Source of the DNA: Botryllus schlosseri
Taxonomy: Eukaryota
DNA length: 64,000 nucleotides
Direction: 5' to 3'
NCBI GenBank assembly: GCA_051294905.1
Contig: CM119373.1
Coordinates: 2,544,001-2,608,000, forward strand
Positions 8,891-57,278 of this stretch are shown piece after piece. A program made the translations under genes and the position numbers. The notes beneath the pieces were generated by a model. It was not told the DNA's origin and searched no databases. It was given only the letters and a program-made list of their open reading frames with translations. Every line of letters begins with the position of its first letter. Position 1 is the stretch's first letter.

Positions 8891-9667
8891 GCGACCACTA
8901 CATACTATAATGCTAGTACTATATCACATTGAAGATTATTTGGTAGTTTTCGACCGTACCTGTTTCTTTACAATTTGTCACAAAGCGTATAATTTCACTG
9001 TTCGAAAAAGTCGTACGCTACTACTCGACCTGAATCATTACAATCAACACTCGATTCAAATAAGTGTACTCGAATCAATGTTTCCGCTGTCCAGTCCTAA
9101 ACGTGAGCGCAAATCGCCTGAATAATTGCACGTTATTTAAGTAGCAAGTATGGCCCCAGCAAATGTAAAATAATATGCAACGTCTTACGTCTCGATCATC
9201 CATACCACAATAAACAATACTTAAGCCTTTTAGTTGTGACAAACATTTCAGAGCCCGAGGGCTATGTAATAAGTCGAGACTTGGCAACTAAACCACAAGT
9301 CGGCTGCGTGTGAACATTTTTGATAATATGGAAGGAATATAACGATGCCATAGGATATTGAATTGCAGCTCTAGAGTATTGATAAGCTGTGTACGCGAGA
9401 GCTTTCCAAGTGAGTCGTGACAAGCGACTTCCCTTATAACTTGATTATAATTTACGGTTGTATCAACCACAAAAACAATACTCAATTCGCTGGCGTAGTA
9501 GCGGTACTGCGGCACCCATATAATCTGACATACTTCGAAAGGACATGCTTCAAACCACAAGGCTTTACGACAAATTCTGTCTTGACATAAGTAACGCACC
9601 AGATCAATCACGTGACGCATAAGTTCGCGATGTAAGCTGAAACACCAGTATGCAGAACTTTAGGTAC

Positions 9668-10245
9668 CTGGTTATATTGGTGTTCACAGATGCCGGGTTC
9701 ACTGAATTGACACGAACTCCTTTCGGCGCACACTCCCGTGCAACGAGCTTGGTGAATTGATCGACAGCGGCCTTGGTCATGCTGTATACGAAAGCACCAT
9801 CAAACGCATGTAGCCCGGCAATGCTCGAAACGTTCACTATATTCCCTTTGGATTCCACCAAATACGGCATAGCTTTCTGAGTCAAAATGAACATCGACTT
9901 TACGTTGACGGCAAAGAGCGTATCGAAATCTTCAACTGTTGACGTTACTAGACTACCCGGTCTCCACGCACCGGCGTTGTTGATTAGTATATCCAGACGG
10001 TTATACTTTTCCACGACCCTATCCACCACGCTTTCGACCTCCTTTTGGTTTGAGAACTCTGCTTGTATTTGTAGTACGTCCTTGGCGCCGTTCTTGCGAC
10101 ATTCCAGTTCTGTTGAGTTTAATCCGTCCTTATCTCTACCTGATATAGCTAAAACAGCACCGTGCTTCGCGAAATCCTGTGCCGCTTCGCGTCCGATACC
10201 ACTGGACGCGCCGGTCACCAACACAACCTTCCCCGCGAAACTCAT
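9668..10245 (-). CDS. Classical NAD(P)-dependent SDR (FabG/glucose dehydrogenase-like), exon 1; spliced protein 254 aa
   Basis: Motifs TGASSGIG, NNAG, NVSS, YSMTK (YxxxK) and VRVNSVNP. Donor CAG|GTACCT at 9667. Joining to 6642-6828 gives a 765-nt ORF. Confidence 0.93.
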
Positions 10246-10304
10246 TTTGTCGACAATACGCTACGCTTCTGCGACAGCGCTGCTGCTTCGTACTTATTTG
10301 ACCG

Positions 10305-12422: not shown

Positions 12423-14450
12423 TTTATTATTATTATTATATTCTTTATTCACAGTAAGAAACTGGTCAATACACACATAATCCGGGAAGCAACTTGCACC
12501 CAAAGGAAAATGGCGAGATTGGAGTAAATTTTTTAAAATTTCAGTAATGCAGTCAAATTGTTATTCCTATGCAATACATGTAGTCTAAGTCAGATTACAG
12601 AATTGCCGTAGATGAAGAATCGGCAAGGGTTACAGAGCAGAGGTAGAGATAATTGAAAATGAAGAATCGAAATTACAGAAATGATGCTGTGATTCACTAG
12701 TATAATTTTAGTCGAGTGGTGCATTCCAGTGTTGGGATGACTCGAGTCATGACTTGACTCGAGTCAGACTCGAGTCACCTTTTTCGTGTGACTTGACTTG
12801 ACTCGAGTCACTTTTCTAGAATGACTTGACTTGACTTGACTCGGCGTATCAAAAATGTGGATTGACTCGTGACTCGGAGCAAAATTCACGAGTCAATTTC
12901 AAGTCATCAAGTAATCGGTGTCGATAAAATTCATTGTATCTTGCATATGGTCGGATTGCTCGTGGAACGCTCGTGTAACCCGTGAGAGCGACTAAAAATT
13001 CAATGATCGTGCGTTTCACTGTGCCTTCATTGCTCTTTCCCAAATAAATTGACCGCAAACGAAGTGATCGAAGCTTATAGCTTACGATATCGTAAACTAG
13101 TATAGTAAAGTAATTTAATAGTAAAATGTGTATTTCTGTTTTCTGTTCTTACCTTAACCAAACCTCTTGGTTAATTGAAATTGAATTTGAATATAGTTTA
13201 TATAGTCATCAACCATTGGCGCAGGCTCGAATGTATATTGCACCTTATCAATACGTTTCTCTATTATCTATTTTGGCTGGTAACTATAAACTGAGGCTAT
13301 GCAATTACTTACGTAGTTTAGCAGTTCTACGTATGTGTGAGCGATACAGCGCCTACTTGCCTGTATATTTAACTCTATATTCGTTCATTGGTTCAGAATC
13401 AATGACCACTCAATCTGTATTTCAGACAGCCAGCAAAATGCAATGACATAATCATGCCTCATACTTCAAAAAGGCAACTTGACTTGAATTATGACTTGAC
13501 TCGTGACTTGACTTGACTTGACTCGATTTGACTCGAGTCACCTCCAATAATCGAGTGACTTGACTTGACTCGAGTCACCTTCGAAAATCGATTGACTTGA
13601 CTTGACTCGAGTCAAAATGTGCAATGACTCGAAATGACTCGTGACTCGAAGGTAGTGACTTGATCCCAACACTGGTGCATTCAACGCCTTCCGAAGAATA
13701 TGCACAGTGCCCAATAACGTGATCTTTTGGATCATGTCGAATCGAACGTTACCCGGAATCTGTCGGATATGTCTCATGAGCTTTTTGCTTACGACCCCTG
13801 TAGCGCCAATGACTATCGGTACTACGTAAATTTTGCATCGCCACATTTTCGCACATTCCATTTTGAGGTCTGCGTATTTGGACTGCTTTTCTGATTCTGT
13901 TTGTTGTATATTGTGATCAGCTGGGACAGCCAGTTCAATGAACAAGCATTCTCTTTTCTTTTTTAGCTTGATGATCATATCCGGGCGGTTGCTCCTGATT
14001 TCGCGGTCAGTTATAACTGGTACATCCCACAGAATTTTTACCTGGTCGTTTTCTGTCACTGGTGCTGGGCTGTAATCGTACCAATTTTTTGTCGAAGTGG
14101 TGATGTTAAAATGTTTGCATAATTCAAGATGAATGTAGTGCCCAATCCTATTGTGTCTCCATGTCTATTCGGTAGCTGCAAGTGCACCACAGCCGGACAT
14201 GAGATGTGCCACAGTTTTATTTTGGTTGTGGCACATTCTGCATTTGCCGTCTGTGTTTTGCTTCAGAATTCTTTTGCGATAGTATTTTGTAGGAAGCGAT
14301 TGGTCTTGTGCTGCGAAAATGAATCCTTCGCTTGCCGGTTTCAGACCAGAGCTGGATAGCCAGGTCTATGAAAGCTCGTCTACATGGGGCTGTGAAGTTA
14401 ACTTCTTGTGCTGTCCATGAAGAGGCATTGACTCCCAGATCGTTTCTCTC
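12423..14450 (-). mobile_element. 5'-truncated R4/Dong-like non-LTR retrotransposon (zinc knuckle + REL endonuclease), copy A; interrupted by MITE 12727-13674
   Basis: Translation EGFIFAAQDQ...CRMC...HLMSGC...RHN...KILWD...NRPD...IELAVP...EKQSKY...PIVIGATG, with one in-frame stop and a (TAA)n tail. Confidence 0.85.
12727..13674. mobile_element. Young hAT-type MITE with GACTTGACTCGAGTC subterminal repeats
   Basis: TIR CAGTGTTGGGAT, perfect TSD GTGCATTC. Inserted in the last codons of the LINE ORF. Confidence 0.92.
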
Positions 14451-14452
14451 AA

Positions 14453-15680
14453 TATTACTATATTCTTTATTCACAGTAAAACTGGTAGATACACACATAA
14501 TCCGGGGAGCAACCTGCCCCCAAAGGAAAATGGCGAGATTGGAGTAAATTTTTAAAATTTCAGTAATACATTCAAATTGTTATTCCTATGAAATACACGG
14601 AGAAGTCAGATTACAGAATTGCAGCAGTTGAAGAATTGGCAAGGGTTACAGAGGTAGAGATGATTGAAGATGAAGAATCGAAATTACAGAAATGATGCTG
14701 TGATTCACAAGTGTAATTTTAGTCCAGTGGTGCATTCAAGGCCTTCCGAAGAATGTGCACAGTGCCCAATAATGTGATCTTTTGGATCATGTCGAATCGA
14801 ACGTTACCCGGAATTTGTTGGATATGTCTCATGAGTTTTTTGCTCACGACCCCTGTAGCGCCAATGACTATCGGTACAATGTTTATTTTGCATCGCCACA
14901 TTTTCTCACTTTCCATTTTGAGGTCTGCGTATTTGGAGTGTTTTTCTGATTCTTTTTGCAGTAGGCTGTGATCAGCTGGGACAATGAATAAGCATTCTCT
15001 TTTCTTTTTTAGTTTGACGATTATATCCGGGCGGTTGCTTCTGACTTCGCGGTCAGTTATAACTAGGGCTGGGCAAAATCGAGTACCTGGGTGATTCGAT
15101 TCTGAATCATGTATTATGCTTCGAGTCGAGTATTCGAGTATCAGTAAATATGACGTCATAAAAGAATGCAATATATCCAAGTTCAAATATGTACCTTTTA
15201 TGCCACCATCAAGAATATTTGGCCTGTTATGCAACACCTTAGAGATACTTAGTATTTGTTTCGACCATTTCGATTTCATTGCACTTTGTGACGATGTTGT
15301 GGGATGACCATGACTTCGGAAATGTGCTATTTCCGGTAACGTTCATAGCTTTCTACTAATACTTTATAGTATAAGTAAAGTTTATACCGTGTTTCGTATG
15401 ATACGATACGGCCAGCCGTAGTTTCAAGGCTTCCAAAGTGAAAAATAGTATCGGAACTGTAACTCTCTTTGATAAATTAACTTTCAGTGACGAGGAGCAT
15501 ATAATTTCAGTACTCGAAAAAATCGCATTTTACTACTCGACTCGAATCATTAAAATTAATACTCGATTCAGATTCGAGTACTCGAATCATTGTGCCCAGC
15601 CTTAGATATAACTGGTACATCCCACAGAATTTTTACTTGTTCGTTTTCTGTCACCGGTGCTGGGCTGTAATCGTACCAAT
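14453..15680 (-). mobile_element. R4/Dong-like LINE 3' end, copy B; interrupted by MITE 15064-15604
   Basis: Closely similar to copy A REL domain and 3' UTR. Ends KALNAPLD*. Confidence 0.85.
15064..15604. mobile_element. MITE of the TAGGGCTGGGCA family
   Basis: TIRs present; TSD GTTATAAC / GATATAAC. Second copy at 49474-49989. Confidence 0.85.
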
Positions 15681-17606: not shown

Positions 17607-18273
17607 CAGTGTTGGGATCAAGTCACTACCTTCGAGTCACGAGTCATTTCGAGTCATTGCACATTTTGACTCGAGTCAAGTCAAGTCAATCGATTTTCGA
17701 AGGTGACTCGAGTCAAGTCAAGTCACTCGATTATTGGAGGTGACTCGAGTCAAATCGAGTCAAGTCAAGTCAAGTCACGAGTCAAGTCATAATTCAAGTC
17801 AAGTTGCCTTTTTGAAGTATGAGGCATGATTATGTCATTGCATTTTGCTGGCTGTCTGAAATACAGATTGAGTGGTCATTGATTCTGAACCAATGAACGA
17901 ATATAGAGTTAAATATACAGGCAAGTAGGCGCTGTATCGCTCACACATACGTAGAACTGCTAAACTACGTAAGTAATTGCATAGCCTCAGTTTATAGTTA
18001 CCAGCCAAAATAGATAATAGAGAAACGTATTGATAAGGTGCAATATACATTCGAGCCTGCGCCAATGGTTGATGACTATATAAACTATATTCGAATTCAA
18101 TTTCAATTAACCAAGAGGTTTGGTTAAGGTAAGAACAGAAAACAGAAATACACATTTTACTATTAAATTACTTTACTATACTAGTTTACGATATCGTAAG
18201 CTATAAGCTTCGATCACTTCGTTTGCGGTCAATTTATTTGGGAAAGAGCAATGAAGGCACAGTGAAACGCACG
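17607..18273. mobile_element. One-ended inverted copy of MITE 12727-13674
   Basis: Reverse complement of 13008-13674. Only one substitution noticed by eye, and the spurious 106-aa ORF is identical in both copies. Confidence 0.92.
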
Positions 18274-26993: not shown

Positions 26994-27242
26994 TTAACCT
27001 GATGACCCTGCTGTTGATGACTTTTTGCTATGTCGTTTTTCTTTGGTGTCGTCATAGTATCCTTTGGCTTCGTCCTCATCCATATCGTAATACACGCGTT
27101 CTTCATCGCCATAACGCCTTCTACTGGCGACGTACCTCCTCCTTCTGGCATAATAGCGGCGGCGCCTGGCCCAGAACCAGGCCTCACCTTGCAGGATAAG
27201 CCCGATTACGACAAGAAGTATCAGAGTGGTTCTCAGCTGCAT
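26994..27242 (-). CDS. Secreted styelin-like Arg/Tyr/Trp-rich peptide precursor, copy A (82 aa; tail frameshifted)
   Basis: Signal MQLRTTLILLVVIGLILQGEA, core WFWARRRRYYARRRRYVASRRRY(G), acidic tail with RVYY and KGYY. Paralogous to 50983-51201 and 54507-54809. 5' UTR intron at 27250-27315. Confidence 0.88.
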   Translation of the reverse strand: MQLRTTLILLVVIGLILQGEAWFWARRRRYYARRRRYVASRRRYGDEERVYYDMDEDEAKGYYDDTKEKRHSKKSSTAGSSG

Positions 27243-31341: not shown

Positions 31342-34300
31342 ATGTATGTATGTATATTGTGGTTATGGTGCTTAGCAGCTACGGCCTTGTGCACCAGACC
31401 GAAGTGTTGTAGGCATGTGTACTAGATTCTACTGCTGCATTATAGTTGCCTCTCGGTCAGGAAAACATAATCGATCACAGGCAAAATTGTGTAAGGGTTG
31501 CCGAGAAGTGACACAATGTCTATGGGCACATTATTTCGTAGTGCAATGTCCTTAAAATAGTTACGCTGTGAGCTATATCGAGAACATTGAAACAAGAAAT
31601 GCTCAACCGTCTCTATAACGCCACATGTTGCACAAAGGCCATCGTCGTGACATCCAATTTTATGTAAGTGCCCGTTGAGTTTACAATGTCCAGTCTGAAG
31701 CCGTAACAATATTGCTGTTTCCCTTCTTGATAGTCCCAGTGGCTGCGAGATATCATGTGCGGCGTGAATTCGCTTGTAGATATTGTCTGAATCATTCGTT
31801 TCAAATTCGTTTTTCCATCTTTAGCGAGTCATATCTTTGATAATTATTTTGGCCTCTTGTAGGCAGAGTGGGATGTCACTGGATGATCGTTGTATTGGAA
31901 GCGTAGCCGCTTCCTTGGCGAGTTTATCGGCTATACCGTTGAATCCAATCCCGCAGTGACCTGGAATCCAAATAAATGTAATATTTATCCCAGCACGATC
32001 AAGATATCTGCACGAAATTAAAATATCCTCGACTATAGCGCGTGCATTACTGGTTTTACGAGTTTTGAGCATAGTTAAGGCGCTCAAACTATCTGATAAA
32101 ACTGCAATGCCGCAGGTCTGTATAGTTCCTCGGCGCACGACATCAATTATCCAATTAAGACTCTCGTTTATAGCGACTAATGCTGCTGTTAGGATCGATA
32201 TTCTGACATTAAGGGTGGATTTATGCGAAAACTCGAATGACTTAATATAAAAACCGGCACCACAGCCATTTACAGTCTTTGAACCGTCAGTATAGACGTG
32301 TAATCTATCCCTGTAGTTTGCGTATATATATTCTTCACTAGTTTGTTTGATGATTTCCGGGTGGTCTGATTTCTTGATCTCCCGTGAAAGACCTACGTCT
32401 ATAGTACATCCAGGATTTTCCCAAGGATCCATAGTCGATGGTCTTATTTTCTCAATGTGGAGATCTACGAGCCCGTTTCCTGTAAGCATGTTAAAGGTAA
32501 CAAAATTCTCAGAATCTGGGAAGATTTCTTGCCAGGCGTATTCGACCAGGGCTTCACAAGGGTTGTTATTTTGCGACTGTATTGATGCGCGGAAATTCAT
32601 GCATGCCTGGTAATGTCTTAAATGTATTGGTGCTTCGTCACACGAATGCTGAAGCGCGTATACGGGTGTCGAAGCCATAGCTCCCGTGCATATCCTAAGA
32701 GCTGCATTTTGTATCTTCTGGATACCCTGTGCCACGGACTTTGTTGACATCAAATATGCTTCGAAACCATACTCTATGAGTGGACGTATTAAAGCTCTAT
32801 ACAATGTAAGCAGGCATGACGTTGAGGCACCCCACGTCGTCCCGCACAATACTCGCAAGACGTTTAGTCGTTTTGCGCAACGTTCTGTTACCAAACGCGA
32901 ATGTGTTTTGTAGCTGAGTCGAGAGTCAAAAGTAATACCTAGATATTTGTGTTCCTTGTGTACTGGTAGAGTCGCGTTATCGATTGTTAGACACACTTCC
33001 GGCACCTTACGCCGTCTGGTAAAAATGATAGCCGCGGATTTGTTAACATTCACTCTAAGGCCCCATTTTTGGCACCAAACAGATATTTCAGTTAACGAGG
33101 ATTGTAGCGTGTTCAAAATACTAGGAATCTGTAGTCCAGACTCCCATACGCAAGCGTCATCCGCATATAGATTAATGTTGGACGCAATATTCCCGGGAAG
33201 GTCATTTATCAGTATCGAAAAAAGTAATGGACTCAGTACACTGCCTTGTGGCGTTCCATTATCGAGGACAAATGTATTTGAAAGGATTGATCCAATACGC
33301 ACTTGGAAGGTGCGGTCTGATAGGAAAGAGCATATCCACTGGAAGATATTTCCCGACAACCCGATCTTACGTAATTTGATTATAAGCGATTCTCGCCAGA
33401 CGCGATCGTAAACCTTCTCGAGATCTAGAAAAACTGCGGCAACCGTTGTCCTGTTCCAAATCGATTTGTACACGTCATCGTGCAACGACAATATACTATG
33501 TCTGGTCGATCTACCTCTGCAAAAACCGCTTTGAGACACATGCATAATGTTATTTGTTTCTAGCCACCATTGTAATCGGTTGGCGATCATGCGCTCCATT
33601 ATCTTGCACAGATTGCTCGTTAGGGATACAGGTCTGTATGACTGAGATTTTTCTGGTGGTTTCCCCGGTTTGAGTATTGGGATGACGATGGCATGCTTCC
33701 ATGCTTCTGGACAGTGACCCCTCATCCACAATTTGTTCAAGGCTTCGAGTAGTGTGCCTAGACAGTCATCTGGAAGCGTCGATATCATCTTGTAGCATAT
33801 TCTGTCATAGCCAGGTGATGTATTCCGTCTTTTTTTTAGAATAGTAGTGAGTTCATTCAACGTGAACGGTCGGTTAATGCCCATTTCTTCAAGAGGCCGG
33901 TGATATGGTATGCCGTCTAATTCTGATCCGAGATTCATTTTGCACGCCTTCTCTTCTTCGGTCAGATTACTATTACTGCTTTTTGCAGAAAATGTTCTGC
34001 CTAGTTCGTTGGCCTTGTCTGTCTGATCTGTCAGTTCGATGTGGTCATCAGTTTTAATAACACGAATCTGATGTTGTATCTCCAGACATTGCCTTAATGC
34101 ATCTCCAGACATTCGCAAGCTTAGTGTTGTTATCTAATGAATTGCAGAAAAACCTCCAATGTGATCGTTTCGCAGACAAAATACATTTTCTTGCGGCTGA
34201 TCTTCTTTGCTTGAAAAGTATGATGTCATCCATGTTGAAAGTTCTTCTCATTTTCTTGAAGGCTGCTCGTTTAAGTCGAACAGCTTTTGCGCATTCCTCA

Positions 34301-35895
34301 TTCCACCAAGGGACCATCGTTTTCGACGAGGGCTTGGTGACTGGTATCGTTGTAGAGGCCGCTTCAATGATTGCCTTTGATATCTTTTCAACGGCTGACG
34401 TATCGGATGCATCGATTTGTTGAATTTCCGTTGGCATGTCGCTTGAAACCCTGCCCAATCGGCACGACGGAGAGACCACGAGGGAAAATGTGTCTGTATG
34501 GTCTGGTGCGGTACGTCAATTTCTGTGATAACGACGAAATGGTCACTTCCCAAAAGTCTGTCCGTAACCTTCGTTGTTGCACGATGGGCAATATCATTTG
34601 AGACCAGCACCAGATCTAATAGCGTCATTCTTCCAGTGTTTGTATGAGAGATATCGAGTCTGGTTGGCTGGGTTGTGTTAGTAACCACGAGGTCCATGTT
34701 TTGAATGACATGATAAATATGCCTGCCTGTTGTATTCATATTTCGACTTCCCCACATTGGGTGATGTGCGTTGAGATCCCCAACCACTATGGATTTGTTA
34801 TCACATATTTGGAAACATCGGATGCACTGGGAACGGGATAATCTTCTGTTAGGCGGAATATATAGGCTACATTCATGACGATTGTATCGGCTATTTTTAT
34901 TGCCTGTGCTTCTATCGGCTGGACTGCAGGCAACGATACTTCGCAAAACGGAATGCTGTTCTTAATAAACATACACACCCCTCCACCGTGAATGTCTCTG
35001 TCTTTTCTTATTAACGTGTATTGGGAAAATCGTGGGTTATATTTACTAATCAGATGCGTTTCTTGTAATGCTATGATGTCAGGTAGTTTTTCTAGGCTCT
35101 CTATGTATTGCTTCAGTTCATTTATTTTCCTGTATACTCCACGACAGTTCCATTGACATATAATTAGGGGTTTGAAGGTGTACCATAAGTCAGGTCCATA
35201 GCATCGTTGGAGTGTTGCGGACTTTGCGAGGTCAATGCTTCCGTACGATCGCGGTTATTGCTCGCCTCAGGAGCATTCATCAATGGATTTCTATATTCTG
35301 CGGTTGATGCATTTGTATCGATAGTGTTACTTTGGCTCGGACCGGTGCGATTTTTTGATGAGGTCATTCTTAATCGACGTCTACTGGCTGCATTTTCCGC
35401 TTCCGTTGCAGGTTTATCATTGGGGTTGGATGTCTGACTATTCCTAGAGTTTGATTCAGCACCAAAAACCGTAAAACCAAGTTTATCTCCAGCCGACTTT
35501 CTGACTATTTCTTCAATGTTTATTTCCTTTTGTTCAGAGAAAGCCAGTAGAGTGTTTTTCATCACTTCAGCTATGAACGTGAAAAATGTTTCCGTTGTAA
35601 TAGTGATCTGTTTGTTGGACGCCGAGATGAGATTGGGGTCTGTTCCAGGCCGTTCACTGATCGGGTTATTGTTGGTTTGGTGCAAGGAAGGGTATTGCGG
35701 TAACGGCGGGTAGGAGAGGGGGTTCTGATATATATTCTCATGCGGAGTGTTTGTGTGTGTGGTAGCGGTTTGCAAGTTGTTTGCATGCAAGGTCTGGTCC
35801 TGTTGTTGCGACATTTGTCTAGCAGTCCAGTAATCAACATTCGAGTTTGCCATAATGTATTGGATACGAGCTTCTTTTCTATATCTTTATTTCCG
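31342..35895 (-). mobile_element. I-group (I/Nimb-like) LINE: ORF1 remnant + frameshifted ORF2 (APE-RT-RNase H-CCHC)
   Basis: APE motifs QWNCRG, LQET, GDLNAHH, GSDH. RT motifs YRPVSL, GTPQGSVLSP, YADD. RNase H motifs YTDGSK, WIPGHCG...ADKLAK. Terminal C-x2-C...H...C and a (TACA)n tail. Several frameshifts. Confidence 0.93.
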
Positions 35896-47872: not shown

Positions 47873-47903
47873 TCATTCTTGCTGCTCGTAATAACCTTTA
47901 GCC
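47873..47903 (-). pseudogene. Displaced original C-terminus of copy B (AKGYYEQQE*), followed by a GTGAGT donor
   Basis: Matches the copy C ending AKGYYEE* GTGAGT. Separated from the rest of the gene by element 47904-50909. Confidence 0.85.
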
Positions 47904-48169
47904 CAGGGGTGGGCAAACCACGGCCCGCGGGCCGCACCGTTTTGCGCGGCCCGCGAGAGGCTCACGAATCTTATTTAGAATATTGAAGAAATGCGCAGTG
48001 AAAATCTAATTTCTTCAGGGACTCGATTAAACTGTTTCTCATTTTATTTCACCATGATAATCATAAGTGATATTCTGACGAGTTTATTGTTATTTCACTG
48101 CTGGTACGATAGCCCGACCTCAATGCACACGCATTTTAAAAGGTTTCAATTGCTAAACATTACAGAAAG

Positions 48170-49435
48170 CAGAGGTGGTCAAAGCAGTAAAAAAAGCTAC
48201 TCGAGTAGAAGTAGAAGTAGCGACGGAAAAATCTACTCAAGTACAAGTAGAAGTACTTCTTCAATAAGCCACCTAAAACTACTTGAAGTAGAAGTAGAAT
48301 TAACTGACTTTAAATCTACTCAAGTAAGTAAGTAGTTTTGAAAACAGTCTTAATTCGTTCGCATGGACTGTCAAAAGCTGCGAATTGAGCTATGCGGCAC
48401 GTTCAGGGAGCTTGATTCGTATTGATGCATCCCAGGAGCTATCAATTTTCGACAGAATAAGTATTATTTCGCATCATGGGATGCAAATTATAGTATTGAT
48501 ATGAAAATGCGATACTTATCCTTTGTTTACTAGAACACCCCGTTTTTATAGAATATAATGGGATGGCGCCCTACCCCACATAATAAGGCCCCAAGTTTAG
48601 GCGAAGAGCAATACGTAGAAGTTGTATCGGATACGGTTACATCACTTTGCGTGATTAGTATACGTTAATAACAAATATTGTGGATCGCAAAAGTTATATT
48701 TAGTGTAGGCTAGCTTTATTTTCGAAAAATGGAGGCAATACTACACTTGTTTGTACGCTTTAACATCTATGAAAGTAATTAGAACTCAAAGTATGATACT
48801 CGCAATTAAAATGAAATACAAATACCACTTCTAAAAAGCGGAGAATATATTTGCTGTATGTTGTCCATAAAGCTTCAAAGGTCATCTGCTAAAACAGGTG
48901 TAACGTTAAAAACAGCTGGATTTTCCAGATTATCAAGACACGTAAGGGGCTGCTAGATTACAATATGATAGGTAATTGCTAGATTTCGAAACGGTAGTTT
49001 CAAACGTTGTGGTGGGCCATATATACTGTGATGAAATATTTGATATGGGCGACAATGCGGTGTGAGAGGAACCAAGCAATCCGGTACCTAAATTACATTC
49101 ACTGATACTTTCATGAAAACATATTTGTCACTCCATCGCTACTATGCGCGAAGCGCAATAAAATTTCTGGGCTTTTCTTGACTTTTATGAATATTAAATG
49201 TTGGTACTCCATGAAAACAGCCCGGAATTCCTCAAGCTATCGTTCGTATTGGGGGATTAGACTACTTCTAATTGACAAACTGAAAATAGCGAAAGTGAGT
49301 AAGTAGATCACAAAATATTACGAAGTAGAAGTAGAAGTAGAGAAAATCAGATCTACTTGAGTAAGTACCAGAAGTAGAGGAAAACTACTTGAGTACTTCC
49401 AAAAAGTAGAAGTTCTTCGTTACTGACCACCTCTG
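48170..49435. mobile_element. CAGAGGTGGTCA family element (nested)
   Basis: Perfect TSD ACAGAAAG. Confidence 0.92.
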
Positions 49436-49473
49436 ACAGAAAGTCAAAATGGGAATGACTTTCGGATCACAAG

Positions 49474-49989
49474 TAGGGCTGGGCAAAATCGAGTGACTGA
49501 GTGATTCGATTCTGAATCACGTAATATGCTTCGGGTCGAGTCGAGTAATCGAGTATCGCTCATTATGACGTCATAACAGAATGATATACGTCAGAGTTCA
49601 AATCTGTACCGTTTATGCCACCACAAAGAATAGAATGCCAGATGTCCATCTCATAAAAGATACTTTGGTATTTTTCGGCCATACCGATTTTATTCCACTT
49701 GGTGACAATGTTGTGGGATAATCATGACATCGGAAATGTGCTACGACCAGTAACCTTCGTAGCATTATACCATGTGTTTCGTATGTTACGATATCTCAAA
49801 TCAGGGTTTCAAGGCTTCAACAGTGAAAATTGGTATCGAAACTATATTTCTCGTTGATAAATTACCTTTCAGTGGTGAGAAGAGTATAATTTCAGTACTC
49901 GAAATAATCGTATTTTACTACTCGACTCGAATCATTAAAATCAGTACTCGATTCAGATTGGAGTACTCGAATCATTGTGCCCAGCCCTA
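49474..49989. mobile_element. TAGGGCTGGGCA family MITE (nested)
   Basis: TIRs present; homologous to 15064-15604. Confidence 0.85.
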
Positions 49990-50982
49990 ATCAAGAGTGT
50001 CATTTTGCATTGGCCACTCCTATGCTGTACATTGGAAAAACCGATTCGCGCGTGTTATAGGTAGATTCGTTCTATCAGCATTATGTGTGTTGGAGTTGAA
50101 TCCAAAGTAGAATCAGCAAATCTATAAACAGATCACTGCTCACAGATTCAAATCTCCATCCTGTTCTAAGAATCGGGACAACCGACTTTCATCACTAGTT
50201 TTGAAAATCGGTTATATTTAGGTTAACCAGCAGCTTATGAAATCTCGCCATTGTTTCTGACGCGTGTACCATATGCTCAAATCAATGGTTGGTTTGCTTT
50301 AAATAAAAATATGTAAAATTTCCACATCCCCACTATATAATCAAATATCAATATTGCGTTTTGGTTTATAATCCCAATTTTATATAGTGCGGCAAGCGAA
50401 TGGATTTAGATGTTGAATGCTCGGTGCTCGAGTGTTTTTCCATACAAACTGGTTACTGATGAGGACGATCCACTTATATATCATCTCCATATTTCCTCGG
50501 TCACTATATGACAGTAGTTTTTAAACTGGGGGACGTGAAAGCATCTGAAAGGAGGCGCGAAGGCGCAGTAAACTAAAAAAAAATTCGATTTCCTTCCAAT
50601 TTCATGGTTTTTGCTTTGTCTATTGTCCATATTTCATATTTGATATCCTTCAATGCCATCAAACTATCCGTTGGGATTGCAAGCATTCTGATTCCTCTCT
50701 TGGATATTTTGTGACGTCACGATAAAGGGGACGCGAAATTTTTCACTATTATAAAGGAGGGCGTGTCTAGTAAAGTTTAAGAACCACTGCTATATGATTA
50801 AATAACAATATTGCCTTTTGGCTAATAATCTCAATTTAATATAGTACGGCCCACGAATGGGTTTAGATGTTGAATGCGGCCCGCGAGCCAAAAAGTTTGC
50901 CCACCCCTGCTCTAGCCCCATCGTAGTATCGCTTGGATTCGTCATAGTATGCTTCCATACCGTAGTAACCTTTCGATTAGTC

Positions 50983-51201
50983 TTAGTATCCTTCGGATCC
51001 GTCTTCATCCATTCCGTAATGCCCCCTCGATTCGTCTTCTTCCATTCCGTAGTAGCCGCGTTCCTGGTCGTAACGCCTTCTCTTGGCTACGTACCTCCTC
51101 CTTCTGGCGAAATAGCGGCGGCGCCTAGCCCAGAACCAGGCCTCACCCTGCAGGACAAGACCGAGTACGACAAAAAGTATCAGAGTGGTTGTCATTTGCA
51201 T
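50983..51201 (-). CDS. Secreted styelin-like Arg/Tyr/Trp-rich peptide precursor, copy B (72 aa; tail truncated by premature stop)
   Basis: Start MQMTTT at 51201 after acceptor ttcgcAG (intron 51209-51275). Core WFWARRRRYFARRRRYVAKRRRY. The tail continues past TAA codons at 50983 and 50977. Confidence 0.82.
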   Translation of the reverse strand: MQMTTTLILFVVLGLVLQGEAWFWARRRRYFARRRRYVAKRRRYDQERGYYGMEEDESRGHYGMDEDGSEGY

Positions 51202-51730: not shown

Positions 51731-54014
51731 AGAGGTCTCGAAATCAAATATGCTAGCGGGTCAATTTCCTAGTTTTTGAGGACGCCGCGGGCCGCATCAT
51801 AAGTATAATAAGGGTATTGAATGTATTATTTCCAAGTAAGCCTTATTTGACGGGACCTGACAGACTGGAATTCATCGAACATCGTCAAAATGTAATATAT
51901 TCATGCATGGCACAAAAACAAATTTCTAGTATTAGAATAAAACTGTTTTTGTGCTTGGCATAATTTGTTAAAATAATAAGTTCTAAATACCATGCGAGAC
52001 GGCAAATGCATCATTACATCGTAAAAGCTGTTACGTTTTGATACTGCCGCCAATGTTCCCTCTAAGCTGCAAATGTGCGCAATTGCGCAGTGCTGTCACG
52101 GTCTCTGCGCACAGAAAATATAAGTTGCGCACAAAAAAACCCGAAGCGATGACCTATCATTTAGTCGTTACGCATTGTTGTCTGCAGTGAGTTGGTGAGT
52201 GCGCGCAGACTCGTCAAAATTAGTGGGAACATTGATTGCAGCTATAGTGGATATTTGGTGTGTCATATTTATAGGAAGAATATATTAGTATTGACCAAAG
52301 ATTAATTTGATATCATAGCATTTGCGCAGTGTAGCCTAATCCGGGTTTCTGGTATAGTCCTGATAAGCAGGCGATTGTTCATGTCATTGCCAAACCAAAT
52401 TTAATCAGCGTTAGATGTGACTTCGATTATTGGAACAGACCGATAACAAATGAAATATAATAACTATTGTGCCAAAATAATAGCATTGCTTTTTAACCTT
52501 TATAGCAATCGCACCTCTTGTGCTTTAAAGAAGATTTCTCGTACCCTAACACAATTTCCAATGGTATTAAAATCAACCGGCCTATTCATAAAAATTCGGG
52601 CGCGGCGCAAACATTATTTTTCAGCCGATAAATTAACCCCGAAATTATTCCCCTTTTTGTTGGTTTGCAAAACAATTTCAACTTCTAGATAGCAAAGAAT
52701 TATTAAATCAATCTAAAGAAATAAAAGCTGTGCTGCTATTCGATATATTTTTAGAACAGACTCGCGGGCTACTCATCTGGTCGTCGCGGGCTACCTTGGG
52801 TCCGCGGGCACTATGTTGGTGACCCTTACAATACTGCATTCTGGGGAAGATGTTCCTAACATTTTGAATAACAACCCCTTCTTGAAGGTGTACCTGCTTT
52901 GCATTAGAAGAAATGTGTAAAAATAAATTTGTAACGTGAACAAAACAGACGAATTCACACACCAGCATAATGTAGAGTCCTTTGTTCAGATATGATGAAT
53001 GTATTCAGTCCACCGAGAGTCCGAGACACACAACTCAGAACAACACGCATGTGCACGGCTGGGCTGGAAAAGGCCAGAAAGACGATCTCATGATTACAAG
53101 AAACCACGTGTTGCGATCATGAAATCAGATTATATAGAGAAGAAGGTTTACAGCAGCAGCACCACAGCTACGAAATTCGTAATTATTGATTATACATAGA
53201 ATATAGTAATTAAAGTGTTGCTCTGGGATTACAAGACTAGCTGCCAATCAATTTATGAGACCAAACGCTGTCCACAAGTACTGGCGCATGAACATAGGAT
53301 GAAACGCAAATATTCACACTTAATTTGCACCTCGAAGAATTAAACATGGAAATTAAGTTCTTGTTGTTTGCGGCATTCATGGTGTTTCTCGACTACTATG
53401 GTCATTAGCACCAGGCAAATTTTCTTCATTTTCATTCCGTAGATGCCGACTTCTATACTTTTATAAGACACCGCTTATACGGAAGAGATGGCGAGGAGGA
53501 GCCTAGACACCTCCAACACTTAGGTAGGAATTCTGGAGTCAACCTCGGTCGGACTGAAACCCGCAACCCATTGATGTCGTAGCTGCGGCGTAACGCATGT
53601 GCAATCATTAAAGAGCCGCAATCAAAGGCCGAAATAGCCACATGCGGCTCGCGAGCCGCAGCTCGCCCACGCCTGCTACATAGCATACGACCGCATTCCG
53701 GCGGAGAATTGTGATGGCCCGTCTCGACGTCATATACTCATGTTAAATTAGTTACTGAAAACTTCGCACTGCGGAGAGGCCCTTGTGGGGTTCGGTGCCA
53801 TCACTGATTTCTTGAAATATTGCTTGTGTATAGAAGTTTTCAACTGTACTTGCAGAACACCCCCTCAGGCTTACTATCTATGCTCCAATATCGCGAGCAT
53901 TAGGGCGAGGTATATCGTGGGTATTAATCTCTACAGAAATGCGTTGTGAAAATTCCCCTAATTTTAGCAGCAAGGCGTAAACGTTTATCTCTGTGTAGCA
54001 GTATGCTCGACTAA

Positions 54015-54429
54015 TCAAGTGAAACTAAACAAAATCAGGCATCTGATGATGCTGTAGCAGCCGCCACAGTAATATCAACTACGGTGCGCTTCCTTCTGAA
54101 TCCTTTGTTCAGAACATGATTCGCTAATGAAGTACGAACATACGGTGTTATGATTGAAATCAATGCAGACTCGGTAGTAGGGTTTCATATAAAACTATTT
54201 AGAGAGAATACACAATGAAGATCATCGGAAATACTTTTGTTGACATAATCTCGTTTAATATAGTAAAATATGATTAGCGCGATAACGCCGGGTGTTGCTG
54301 CGATGAAGTATAAACAATTTCCGACAGTTTGCTGTGGGAACAATTCCATCCAACATCTATATAAGGAGTTTCATATTTTAGCCACTCCACATCGATCAAG
54401 AGCTACGATAGCACTGGAACGATACCAAA
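54015..54429 (+). promoter_or_regulatory. Promoter (TATATAA at about 54358) and non-coding exon 1 (about 54383-54429) of copy C
   Basis: TATA box about 25 bp before the conserved CACTCCACATCGATC. Intron 54430-54499 (GTAAGA...TTTTTGCAG). Confidence 0.8.
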
Positions 54430-54506
54430 GTAAGAATATAGACTGCGAATTCAATACTTTGTTATGGTGATATGATAACACTCATCTTGTTTTTTGCAGC
54501 TTCAAC

Positions 54507-54809
54507 ATGCAGACTAAAACCACTCTGATACTTCTCGTCGTAATCGGGCTTGTCCTGCAGGCTGATGCCTTATGGTGGTCAAGGAGACGCCGTTATTACG
54601 CCAGGAGAAGGCGTTACGACCAGGAACGTGGCTACTACGGTATGGAAGAAGACGAATCGAAGGGTTACTACGGAATGGATGAAGACGAATCCAAAGGATA
54701 CTACGACGAATCGAAAGGTTACTACGGCATGGATGAAGACGAATCCAAAGGATACTATGACGAATCCAAGGGATACTACGATGGAGCTAAGGGCTACTAC
54801 GAAGAATAG
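54507..54809 (+). CDS. Secreted peptide precursor, copy C (100 aa, intact): signal + LWWSRRRRYYARRRRY + acidic tail with 7 (K/R)GYY units
   Basis: Hydrophobic signal ending A-D-A, conserved gene structure across paralogs, repeats differing mainly at synonymous sites. GTGAGT donor directly after the TAG. Confidence 0.92.
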   Translation: MQTKTTLILLVVIGLVLQADALWWSRRRRYYARRRRYDQERGYYGMEEDESKGYYGMDEDESKGYYDESKGYYGMDEDESKGYYDESKGYYDGAKGYYEE

Positions 54810-55350
54810 GTGAGTATAGTTATTACAGTGACTGCTTGCTATATTCCTCAATATTACCTACCAATTGTAATAGGGAGCATGGGGACTTATTTTACGTAAC
54901 CTGACATCAACCTTCGATATAGTGTCAATAAGGATTTGATCTTCCACTTCTCCTACATTTTACGGAACAGTGGATGATAAATTAATCAAACCAAGTGACA
55001 TACGCCATTACCTAAATTTAGGGTAGTCTTAGAAATAATAGATTTTCACATTTCCAACCACCATAAATTATTTCACCGAGACCGGAAAAATATTCTTCAA
55101 AATTTGTTACTATCGTCGGGACTATTCACGTGAACTCGAATATATTAATCTTGATCGACAATTAGGATACATATGACCCCCATCAATTTTCGTTCCGAAA
55201 ATGCGTAATTTCTAGCGAATCAAAACTTAGACAATATGCAGTATGCCTACTTATTGTGGCTTGTAAGATGTAGATTTATGCATGAGTCGGTAAAGACTGA
55301 CAGAGTATCAACATGAGTATTACTGATCATTGATATTTTATAATTTTCAG

Positions 55351-55420
55351 ATCCTCAAGACCAAAGTCAATGGCAAAGTGAAAATCTACACACATATAAA
55401 AATGAGTGTACTATAAAAAT
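55351..55420 (+). other. 3' UTR exon 3 of copy C (3' end approximate)
   Basis: Acceptor aattttcAG at 55349-55350. Homologous to copy B exon 3. Confidence 0.65.
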
Positions 55421-56775
55421 ATATCTTAAACAGTATTGCAGAGTATTGTGTCTGCTGTCAGATAGGGAACTGATGATATATTAGTGATAGAGGAACATGG
55501 TTCACTGGCTCTACAAATAATAGGGCATGGCTATTTGCAGCTATACGCTCCTATACCGTATCACGACTTGTTCACTCTTGCTATCCAACAGGGATGCTAA
55601 GCAATGCTAATGGAAGTAATGCTGAGTATAGTACATGAAACAATGGTGGTACTATAATCGCATATTTCAATCAAAAATGGAGATTTTTATTAGGAAATGC
55701 GTGTGCCACATTATAAGCGCTCGTTCACCATGTCGAGTTTTCACGTTGTTGTTCATCAGCAGTAACAAGTCTATTACACACTTGCACTCGGTACAAAGTT
55801 TTACATAATATGTAGAGAAAGGCAGTTAAACTCGGAGGCGAAACGCCGATGCCAAAACCGCGTATGCAAGTTACGTTGTGCGCAAAGACTATAAGGCGAA
55901 TATAGGTTCTCTCGCTGCTATTAACACATCACTGAAAATTATGGGTGTTAAAAAAAGTATATTTTTTCAAATTTCCTCGGCTTACTTGTCAAATCGTCAG
56001 GTTACAATAAAAAACATTGCACACTAAATTTGACTCAATTCCAACCAGTAGATAAGGTTAGTCAAATTAAAATTTCGATCACTTTTGAGATAATAGTATT
56101 TACGGTGACCAATTTCGTAACACCGACATGAGAAAAAATCGTGTTCCGGATATGCCTGAAGAGGCAGGAATGCCTTTTCCACTTGTTTTTATCCTTGCAA
56201 GGGCCTACGGTGGAGTTTGGATGAAGACATCGCCAGTAAACGAGAAAAAGATATGACACGGATTAGCAGGAAATTAGTTCATGTCATTGAAATAGAAACG
56301 TTAAAAGGATGGTGAGATAATTTTCAAATAGAGTACTTTACGCACTTTGTGAAAGTCTGATAGGTGAATCGATTTCGGCTCTCTGTTACCATATTGGGAC
56401 AGCTGCAAGGAATATCTCATTAGATCTTGGATTCTGTGACTGTTGACTGCTGGCCGACTTGTATTCAATTTTAAAGCTACTTCTAATTTTAATACTTCAT
56501 CCTCGAACCATACATGGTATTTTGGGTTTGACATTGACTTTAACCTAAAATGGAAGACGCGAAGACCCCAATTTGTAATCCGTGCAAAAGGCTATCTGCT
56601 GCGGCCGGAATTGTAGCTTGAAATTCTTGTTAGAAAACCATATATATACCATATTGTCACACCAACCTTCTTCATGGGTTATGTGTATTTGGGATGGCCA
56701 ATCGGACAGATTTGAACAGAATTTGTTGAGAACAACATCGAGCCATAAGGAATATCGGTGACATCGATTCTAGAC

Positions 56776-57278
56776 TAGACCTGGGCAGAGTGCGACCCGC
56801 GCAGCTATTCTGAGCGGCCCGCGTGCCCGTTGCTTGAAAATCAAAACATAAAATCTACTTTTGAATATTGCTGTGTGGAATAAAGCCATGGACTGTATAA
56901 ACAGAACCAGAACGAAGCCGCAACAGTTCGGAAGGCAGCGATCAAGACAATAGGCTTTGTAGTACCACAAATACATTTAAATGTCTTAATATAAAAACGT
57001 GGATTAAAGAGAATTCAAAACGTCTCATGTTTAACATTGTTTCGAATTATGACAGAAATTAAATAGATTATTGGTTTTTGTTAATTAACCGTTATTTTGC
57101 CATCATCTAATATCAATATATCCACGCGAGCAGCATTGATTAACAATGTAATTCACTGCTTTAAATTTAGAAATAAAATTAATACGCTGAAGGATATAGC
57201 TAAACATTTGTACTCGGCCCGCCAACGTATTTTCTGTTGCTCATTCGGCCCGTTGAGAAAAATAATTGCCCACCCCAG
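56776..57278. mobile_element. Degenerate hAT MITE
   Basis: Ends ..CCTGGGCA / TGCCCACCCCAG, TSD TTCTAGAC / TTCTAGAT. Confidence 0.7.

Follow-up and report, generated by a model that had tools for sequence, protein, structure and literature searches.

In a 64,000-nucleotide stretch of contig CM119373.1 (assembly GCA_051294905.1), here called the window and numbered from its first letter, there are three copies of a gene for a small protein, and only one of them, copy C, is intact. Copy C is a real, spliced, polyadenylated and abundantly transcribed gene, and it belongs to a family that is new to Pfam and to the literature searched; the novelty lies in a tyrosine-repeat tail under selection and an arginine-block head, set on the known ascidian prepropeptide layout of cationic head and anionic tail. 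We suggest, as a tentative but quite possible reading, that the family supplies granule cargo in which a polycationic head accompanies a tail of Tyr, Lys and Asp that undergoes oxidation or cross-linking in polypeptide form. A first-pass annotation of the window had instead interpreted the tail as a ribosomal precursor of tunichrome-type Gly-Tyr-Tyr (GYY) tripeptides, an interpretation that we weigh below.

Structure and transcription of copy C

The open reading frame (ORF) of copy C occupies 54507-54809 on the forward strand, and its 100 codons translate into a protein of 100 residues in the order MQTKTTLILLVVIGLVLQADA, LWWSRRRRYYARRRRY, DQER and seven GYY units. Transcription was assessed over 53500-57000 using contigs from three RNA runs (X1, X3 and X8) together with the raw reads of a single-cell RNA run, X23; 5,652 of the 22.2 million X23 reads sampled map to the stretch, which corresponds to 255 per million sampled reads. 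Read depth in X23 sits on three exons only, and the bins upstream of them are zero. The 5' end of the transcript lies at about 54389, where 50 raw X23 reads carry letters of the template-switch oligonucleotide directly before this position, and the sequence TATATAAGG at 54358..54366 (+), 23-31 nucleotides upstream of the mapped end, probably functions as a TATA box.

All three exons lie on the forward strand. Exon 1 (54389..54429), defined by X23 reads, is a non-coding 5' leader without an ATG; it is joined to exon 2 across a GT..AG intron of 70 nucleotides (54430..54499), the joint 54429>54500 being present in 53 X23 reads with 16 start places, while in the X1, X3 and X8 contigs the exon-1 letters appear as loose ends before 54500. 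Exon 2 (54500..54809) holds the entire coding sequence, from the ATG at 54507, which is the first ATG of the messenger RNA (mRNA), to the TAG at 54807-54809, which makes up the final three bases of the exon. Directly behind this stop codon the spliced reads place a second GT..AG intron of 541 nucleotides (54810..55350), supported by 802 X23 reads with 54 start places, by another 132 reads in a variant form and by one X8 contig that spans the joint. Exon 3 (55351..55435) is 3' untranslated sequence with TATAAA about 20 nucleotides before the poly(A) site; 41 X23 reads that run into poly(A) after 55435 mark that site.

No insertion or deletion is listed in the reads over the copy C exons, and the differences from the assembled sequence are mostly synonymous. 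Two are nonsynonymous: at position 54631, C replaces G in 592 of 622 X23 reads, which changes Gly42 to Ala and turns the first unit into AYY, and the other is Gly45Asp. Either alleles or strains differ at 54631, or reads of a paralog were cross-mapped there. A contig of X8, a run whose label gives a second organism, contains the copy C mRNA in spliced form with two differences. A further 32 X23 reads continue from the tail into units of the DGAKGYYDSAK type, and long-tailed paralogs are therefore also transcribed.

Constraint on the tyrosine tail and the arginine-block head

The acidic tail (54618..54806, +, followed by the stop codon) comprises residues 38-100. Its translation confirms what the first-pass annotation had described, namely 63 residues with seven GYY, a basic residue before each (R at the first, K at the other six), G, D or E after it (three, three and one, respectively), and 21 D/E against 7 K/R; the net charge of the tail is -14, compared with +8 for the head. 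Tandem repetition with periods of 21, 33 and 54 nucleotides underlies the tail. The seven GYY are therefore duplications and not independent events, and it is the pattern of substitutions, not the number of GYY, that lifts the tail above chance.

That pattern was read from a census in which all tails of the family were split at K or R without requiring GYY, giving 63 units of seven residues and 24 of eleven. Among the seven-residue units, position 1 is G in 61 of 63, with four Gly codons in use; positions 2 and 3 are Y in 62 and 63, position 4 is D in 62 (GAC 32, GAT 30), positions 5-6 are variable, and position 7 is K in all 63 (AAA 33, AAG 30). The eleven-residue unit GYYGMDEDESK is near-invariant, 20 of the 24 having G after YY and continuing as G-M-D-E-D-E-S. 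The Lys and Asp of the units are maintained without exchange for Arg or Glu, and the presence of Lys, not Arg, at 85 of the 87 unit boundaries suggests a chemical role for lysine. The unit boundaries in the tails have no flanking dibasic or R-x-K/R-R sites, blocks of three to six Arg being confined to the head, and we found neither a Gly-basic amidation signal nor any recognisable processing site after YY.

Selection was estimated from pairs of paralogs by the Nei-Gojobori method, as the ratio of the proportions of nonsynonymous (pN) and synonymous (pS) differences. For the GYY tails, pN/pS is 0.02 in the pair L004/L005 (pS 0.40), 0.04 in L003/L004 and 0.05 in L001/L003, the comparison of copy C with a paralog on contig 14 (pS 0.80); in L001/L002 it is 0.34. 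The head of the L001/L003 pair gives 0.06 and the signal peptides 0.19-0.64 in informative pairs, so that the three lowest tail values match the head and are tighter than the signal peptide, while the tails without GYY of two pairs of sister genes on contig 4 reach 0.65-1.34, from few sites. The coding sequences of L001 and L002 are about 5% apart, compared with 12.5% across the surrounding 1.4 kb that could be aligned. Taken together with the pN/pS values, this means that the head and the GYY tail are both maintained as protein sequence.

In the six genes with full tails (copy C, its sister gene L002 and four contig-14 paralogs) the Tyr content is 21-26%, with one Lys per unit. Their tails carry net charges of -10 to -17 against +8 for the head, leaving the mature proteins at -2 to -9, and the expanded DGAKGYY units are charge-neutral. 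The first-pass annotation had also offered a charge-neutralising pro-piece as an alternative, but as a sole role this is contradicted: the tail is constrained like the head, it expands by neutral units, its charge overshoots that of the head, and its Lys and Asp are not exchanged for Arg and Glu, all of which indicate more than a neutralising pro-piece.

The tail is preceded by a predicted signal peptide of 21 residues, MQTKTTLILLVVIGLVLQADA (54507..54569, +), which has A-x-A before the predicted cut and is common to the whole family in alignment A1, and by the polycationic head LWWSRRRRYYARRRRY (54570..54617, +), of net charge +8, with aromatic pairs between two Arg4 blocks. An amphipathic helix was considered for the head and rejected: at 100 degrees its hydrophobic moment reaches 0.14, compared with 0.36 as the mean of shuffles, and the moment falls under the shuffle mean in five of the six heads examined. 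The head is therefore not a styelin-type peptide. The heads do show a block periodicity of seven residues, the fraction of shuffles reaching the observed value being <=0.013 in five of six, and the arrangement of arginine blocks and aromatic pairs is a new head type among the few ascidian cationic peptides. Arg4 is an optimal furin-type site, and the head may persist intact, as a polycation, or may be processed to WWS, YYA and the tail from Tyr37.

Family members, relatives and host

Query P0001 gave 30 matches in the 495.5-Mb genome and two further queries added members; 35 family loci were retrieved and their ORFs read. All members share a similar signal peptide, blocks of three to six Arg and then an acidic tail (alignment A1); between the Arg blocks stand one to four residues, most of them aromatic (WWA, YYA, YYS, YSA, HHH, HVH and others). 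GYY tails are found in clusters on contigs 3, 14 and 2, and the number of GYY per paralog ranges from 1 to 19. The four contig-14 genes have 9-19, three of them 18 or 19, mostly as DGAKGYY, and the fourth has many KWY variants; a cluster on contig 4 has short acidic tails without GYY. Several members are degenerate, among them L009 with a stop in the head and L010 with a frameshifted tail. Pfam returned no family for P0001, L003, L029 or P0005, the best ESM Atlas score was 0.77, under any useful level, and six peptide strings of the family did not occur in the full text of the 8.1 million PubMed Central (PMC) papers and 0.36 million bioRxiv preprints searched.

The heads of L035 (G000:C4:13504000-13505400) and L029-L032 (C4 11.79-11.82 Mb and C10 9.36 Mb) depart from the usual pattern: one has four tandem YS[AV]RRR units, and a His-rich group has the form RCHH-R4-HHH-R4-HVH-R5-AA-R5 with the acidic tail YDEENEDETPDFEV. 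By their sequence, the products of these loci look like secreted protamine-like polycations.

The other two copies in the window have degraded tails. Copy A (26997..27242, -) has an intact signal peptide and a longer head with three Arg blocks and net charge +11; its shortened tail has VYY, one GYY and then an unrelated end, with an early stop after an inserted stretch, and a relict KGYYEQE lies just downstream. Copy B (50911..51201, -) is a pseudogene with an intact head, the variant GHY and two in-frame TAA codons in the tail. The tail of copy B is interrupted by an insertion of 3.0 kb (47899..50914), with 20-nucleotide terminal inverted repeats that are 90% complementary and CTAG and CTAA as its flanks, which is probably a DNA transposon; the detached end of the coding sequence is found at 47873..47899 (-), as KGYYEQQE, a stop and then GTGAGT.

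Outside this genome, a profile of 18 members run against 1.84 billion representatives gave eight matches at E 0.001 or better, and a word-indexed profile search gave four, one of them new. With P0001 alone the word-indexed search returned no match at E<=0.01 among 358 candidates, but it missed the query itself as well. Six of the sequences (P0002, P0003, P0005, P0006, P0008 and P0013) have a signal peptide, a head such as FLWSRRRRYYVRRRRY and an acidic tail; in one, a variant head has WWARRRR and then YYYRRRR twice. None of the six has a GYY array in its tail, P0008 having a single GYYG-acidic unit. The three relatives that were checked are only 49-62% identical to this genome and therefore come from other species. 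P0009-P0012, from another organism, carry an array of the 7-mer KGIYDGS and match this genome through the repeats only (56-69% identity). Two matches were rejected as due to chance: P0004, which is a kinase-like receptor that has RRR, an acidic stretch and a transmembrane segment, and P0007, whose ORF is repetitive. The head of P0003, from a Logan assembly of another species, reads WWA-RRRR-YYY-RRRR-YYY-RRRR-Y; each of its two YYY tripeptides has tetra-Arg on both sides and corresponds in backbone to the An and Pm types of tunichrome.

The host is a botryllid ascidian. Exons of glycosyl hydrolase family 6 (GH6, cellulase-type) were found over the Pfam cut-off at two loci, one exon scoring 39.8 bits, and in none of 14 control genomes. 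The cellulose synthase of tunicates contains GH6, which is not known elsewhere in animals. The published Botryllus schlosseri primer for botryllin (PMC9966394, Table 3) matches the genome exactly, at a locus that encodes a botryllin-like exon.

Several other elements share the window. A non-LTR (long terminal repeat) retrotransposon at 31440-35886 (-) encodes, in long open frames, an endonuclease (Exo_endo_phos_2), a reverse transcriptase (RVT_1, 127.8 bits) and RNase H, and has a zf-RVT match that is weak and below the cut-off; the element looks young. A single long exon at 9604-10260 (-) encodes a short-chain dehydrogenase (adh_short, E 3e-53) with no evident link to the peptide genes. Two identical frames of 110 residues, at 13114-13446 (+) and 17835-18167 (-), are inverted about 4.4 kb apart and bracket two similar frames of 207-208 residues (13538-14164 and 14719-15342, -), the one scanned having only a weak Pfam match below the cut-off; together these frames may belong to a mobile element whose ends are long inverted copies.

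Possible functions and known systems

In the reading that we prefer, copy C would be a small secreted two-module protein of a lineage-expanded ascidian family, probably stored in granules, in which a polyanionic tail of K-G-Y-Y-(D/G) units follows a polycationic head and both modules are functional products. The head would be an antimicrobial polycation of arginine and aromatic residues that also condenses the tail by charge and by Arg-Tyr contacts; alternatively, its Arg blocks may be furin-type sites that release the tail. The tail would be phenolic cargo, its tyrosines being hydroxylated or oxidised by the phenoloxidase of haemocytes, presumably the cells that store it, and then cross-linked to the tail's own invariant lysines, so that it acts as a polypeptide, or as K-delimited pieces of 5-11 residues, and not as free GYY tripeptides. 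We favour a phenoloxidase substrate because this repeat of Tyr, Lys, Asp and Gly occurs in an animal in which phenolic peptides of unknown identity undergo oxidation. In addition, the Tyr content of the six full-tail genes is near that of the schistosome eggshell protein p48 (26% Y and 15% G in the parts of PMC3499410 consulted). A segment cross-linked through 3,4-dihydroxyphenylalanine (DOPA) had been listed as an alternative in the first-pass annotation, and it fits the data at least as well as the release of free GYY.

Several observations weigh against our suggestion. In the five clear relatives from other species the head is conserved but GYY arrays are absent, so that the function of the tail would be lineage-specific; copies A and B have a constrained head (pN/pS 0.20) and degraded tails, which fits a function centred on the head. 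The head itself fails the amphipathic-helix test, and its Arg4 blocks are such good furin sites that the intact head may be lost in the secretory pathway. Concerted evolution of tandem units could inflate the conservation of the tail, although the high pS counters this. The relationship to botryllin is also weak by direct alignment: in hhalign, A1 and the botryllin exon match with 63% probability across 24 columns, and signal peptides are easily aligned.

Rather unlikely, in our judgement, is a plain antimicrobial peptide precursor, in which the Arg/Trp/Tyr head is the sole active product and the acidic tail is discarded as a neutralising pro-piece, as in clavanin, styelin and botryllin. The layout of a signal peptide with a cationic and an anionic extension is that of botryllin as set out in the sections of PMC9966394 considered, conservation across subfamilies and species resides in the head, and the constrained heads and decaying tails of copies A and B, together with the near-neutral short acidic tails of the sister genes on contig 4, would all be expected of such a precursor. 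It does not account for GYY tails that are constrained like the head, for DGAKGYY units that are uncharged overall and mature proteins that end at a negative net charge in the six full-tail genes, for Lys and Asp kept without exchange, or for a head that is not an amphipathic helix. This explanation thus fits less of the evidence than oxidisable granule cargo does, and the same holds for a signalling precursor, treated last.

The tunichrome interpretation appears improbable to us. It holds that GYY is excised from a ribosomal multi-core precursor and that hydroxylation of Tyr to DOPA, dehydrogenation and oxidative decarboxylation at the C-terminus yield compounds of the Mm-1 type; in a variant, Tyr-Tyr would give enamides of the botryllamide type. 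The ascidian host on which it depends was found, through the GH6 exons and the exact botryllin primer match, and the Gly-DOPA-DOPA-derived backbone claimed for Mm-1 agrees with Table 1 of PMC3039461, which gives Gly-dehydroDOPA-dehydrodopamine. It is also favoured by a GYY that is invariant under selection, present in up to 18-19 copies per gene and abundantly transcribed, by a specific Lys before and Asp after GYY that could mark Lys- and Asp-specific cuts, and by the aromatic tripeptides between Arg blocks in the heads, with the YYY of P0003 occurring twice as an An/Pm backbone. However, the cut after YY that would free GYY in a multi-core layout lacks a counterpart in the sequence: no known cleavage signal follows YY, and the residues there are nearly as conserved as GYY itself, as the continuation of the long units shows, while oxidative decarboxylation needs a free C-terminal Tyr (PMC3039461, in the part consulted). 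The basic residue before GYY is almost always Lys, whereas convertases favour Arg. GYY arrays are absent from the relatives in other species, the reports of Mm-1 concern Molgula and not botryllids, with no matching known metabolite in the genus, and the tripeptides between Arg blocks in this genome have A or S, and no aromatic residue, at their last position. The variants VYY and GHY, said to diversify the products, are indeed present in copies A and B, but B is a pseudogene and the tail of A is shortened. What stands of the interpretation is therefore a real, transcribed and conserved gene in an ascidian; the processing site after YY and GYY arrays in the relatives are lacking.

A broader form would make the family a ribosomal source of ascidian Tyr-derived compounds, with both the Lys/Asp-bracketed GYY and the Arg-bracketed head tripeptides excised and oxidised to tunichromes or botryllamides, in the manner of an animal-encoded ribosomally synthesised and post-translationally modified peptide (RiPP); we regard this, too, as doubtful.

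As background to the remaining explanation, the rules for monobasic cleavage sites allow a basic residue at P8, and acidic neighbours favour tyrosine sulfation. A multi-copy signalling precursor, from which cleavage at Lys and trimming would yield GYYDGA, GYYDES and GYYGMDEDES as possibly Tyr-sulfated hormones or cytokine-like peptides, has on its side a signal peptide, tandem units that each end in one basic residue, a 7-residue period that puts the previous Lys at P8 and acidic neighbours of Tyr, but is very improbable given Lys and not Arg at nearly all boundaries, the lack of dibasic sites and of a Gly-basic amidation signal, a copy number that varies so widely among paralogs, a transcript level in X23 that is unusually high for a signalling peptide and the lack of relatives with such units in other species.

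In the parts of the cited literature considered here, no defined gene is given for the morula-cell phenoloxidase substrates that serve cytotoxic allorejection, clotting and tunic hardening, and tunichromes, botryllamides and the small DOPA peptides of the holdfast are likewise without one. The copy C family is a concrete, abundantly transcribed and multi-copy candidate in a laboratory model ascidian, with Tyr units under strong selection at the protein level, and it turns the question of the phenolic substrate into a directly testable one. We regard it as a good but unproven candidate for the source of the phenolic material that is oxidised for defence and tissue hardening.

Among the closest known systems are antimicrobial prepropeptides of ascidian haemocytes. 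Like botryllin of Botryllus schlosseri and the styelins and clavanins of Styela clava, copy C encodes a small secreted-type precursor in which a cationic segment follows the signal peptide and a long acidic extension forms the C-terminus, the styelin/botryllin layout being present here as a signal peptide, a head of +8 and a tail of -14. The botryllin-like genes of this genome share with copy C a non-coding first exon followed by an intron that ends at the ATG, the counterpart in copy C ending 7 nucleotides before it, and they have WGRRRRR directly after the signal peptide and then a Lys-rich peptide; the pro-region of botryllin also contains acidic Tyr sequence of the DEYDGA type (PMC9966394, Table 4). 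A more distant paralog, L041, gives 93.9% in hhalign against A1 and a BLASTP E of 7e-4 against the botryllin exon, with the signal peptide contributing to the match, and judged from these alignments a distant common origin of the two families is plausible. Copy C differs in having neither a Lys-rich amphipathic helix nor a KHK motif, in having its coding sequence wholly in one exon and in its constrained tail of tandem Tyr units, which the sections of PMC9966394 considered do not describe for botryllin. According to the corresponding parts of PMC9966394 and PMC5465252, botryllin is made in morula cells, where the propeptide is stored in granules with furin, phenoloxidase and unidentified 'polyphenol substrata'. 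The genome has two botryllin-like genes in tandem, 55 kb apart (L025/L026, G000:C11), and a third, more distant one in L041 (G000:C5:19211700-19213100), which starts WGRRRRRRSGRRRRRSWLKK; in all three, the signal peptide is separated from the Lys-rich peptide by a Trp-Gly-polyArg segment that is not discussed in those sections of PMC9966394.

With the tunichromes and botryllamides, likewise ascidian products, copy C shares GYY as the backbone of Mm-1 and YY as the proposed origin of the botryllamides, the latter being, together with unidentified polyphenols, the Botryllus compounds named in the literature consulted. In the parts of PMC3039461 considered, Mm-1 and its Leu analogue Mm-2 are given in Table 1, An and Pm tunichromes have three aromatic residues, the enzymes that would make such compounds are a field described as 'practically untouched', and section 7 states the requirement of oxidative decarboxylation for a free C-terminal carboxyl. 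The tunichromes differ in being small molecules, and Mm-1 comes from Molgula manhattensis, of another ascidian family; copy C, for its part, has no site after YY.

In the precursors of neuropeptides and of fungal RiPPs of the ustiloxin and asperipin type, Tyr cores are bracketed on both sides by dibasic sites for Kex2 or convertases. Copy C resembles these multi-core precursors in its signal peptide and its many short Tyr-containing cores, and differs in that its units have a single Lys before them and nothing after YY.

The holdfast of Halocynthia roretzi contains peptides of 1.5-2 kDa with DOPA and halo-DOPA, in which Glx, Ser and Gly are also abundant and which are packed as condensates in granular cells, for which the portions of PMC13079984 considered name no precursor gene; they come from another ascidian family and contain about 50 mol% catechol, compared with the 21-26% Tyr of the copy C family. 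The quinone-tanned precursors, finally, that is, the trematode eggshell proteins p48 and p14 and the mussel foot proteins, are secreted, stored with phenoloxidase and built of short tandem units of Gly, Lys and Asp with 20-30% Tyr, with Lys as the partner in cross-linking (PMC3499410 and PMC10531651, in part; the former describes p48 as cross-linked by tyrosinase). The six full-tail genes of the copy C family have the same feature, in that they encode secreted-type proteins with short tandem repeats of more than 20% Tyr together with Lys; there is no sequence homology, and copy C is set apart by a tail that is strongly acidic, compared with the basic mussel proteins, and by the polyarginine head fused to it.

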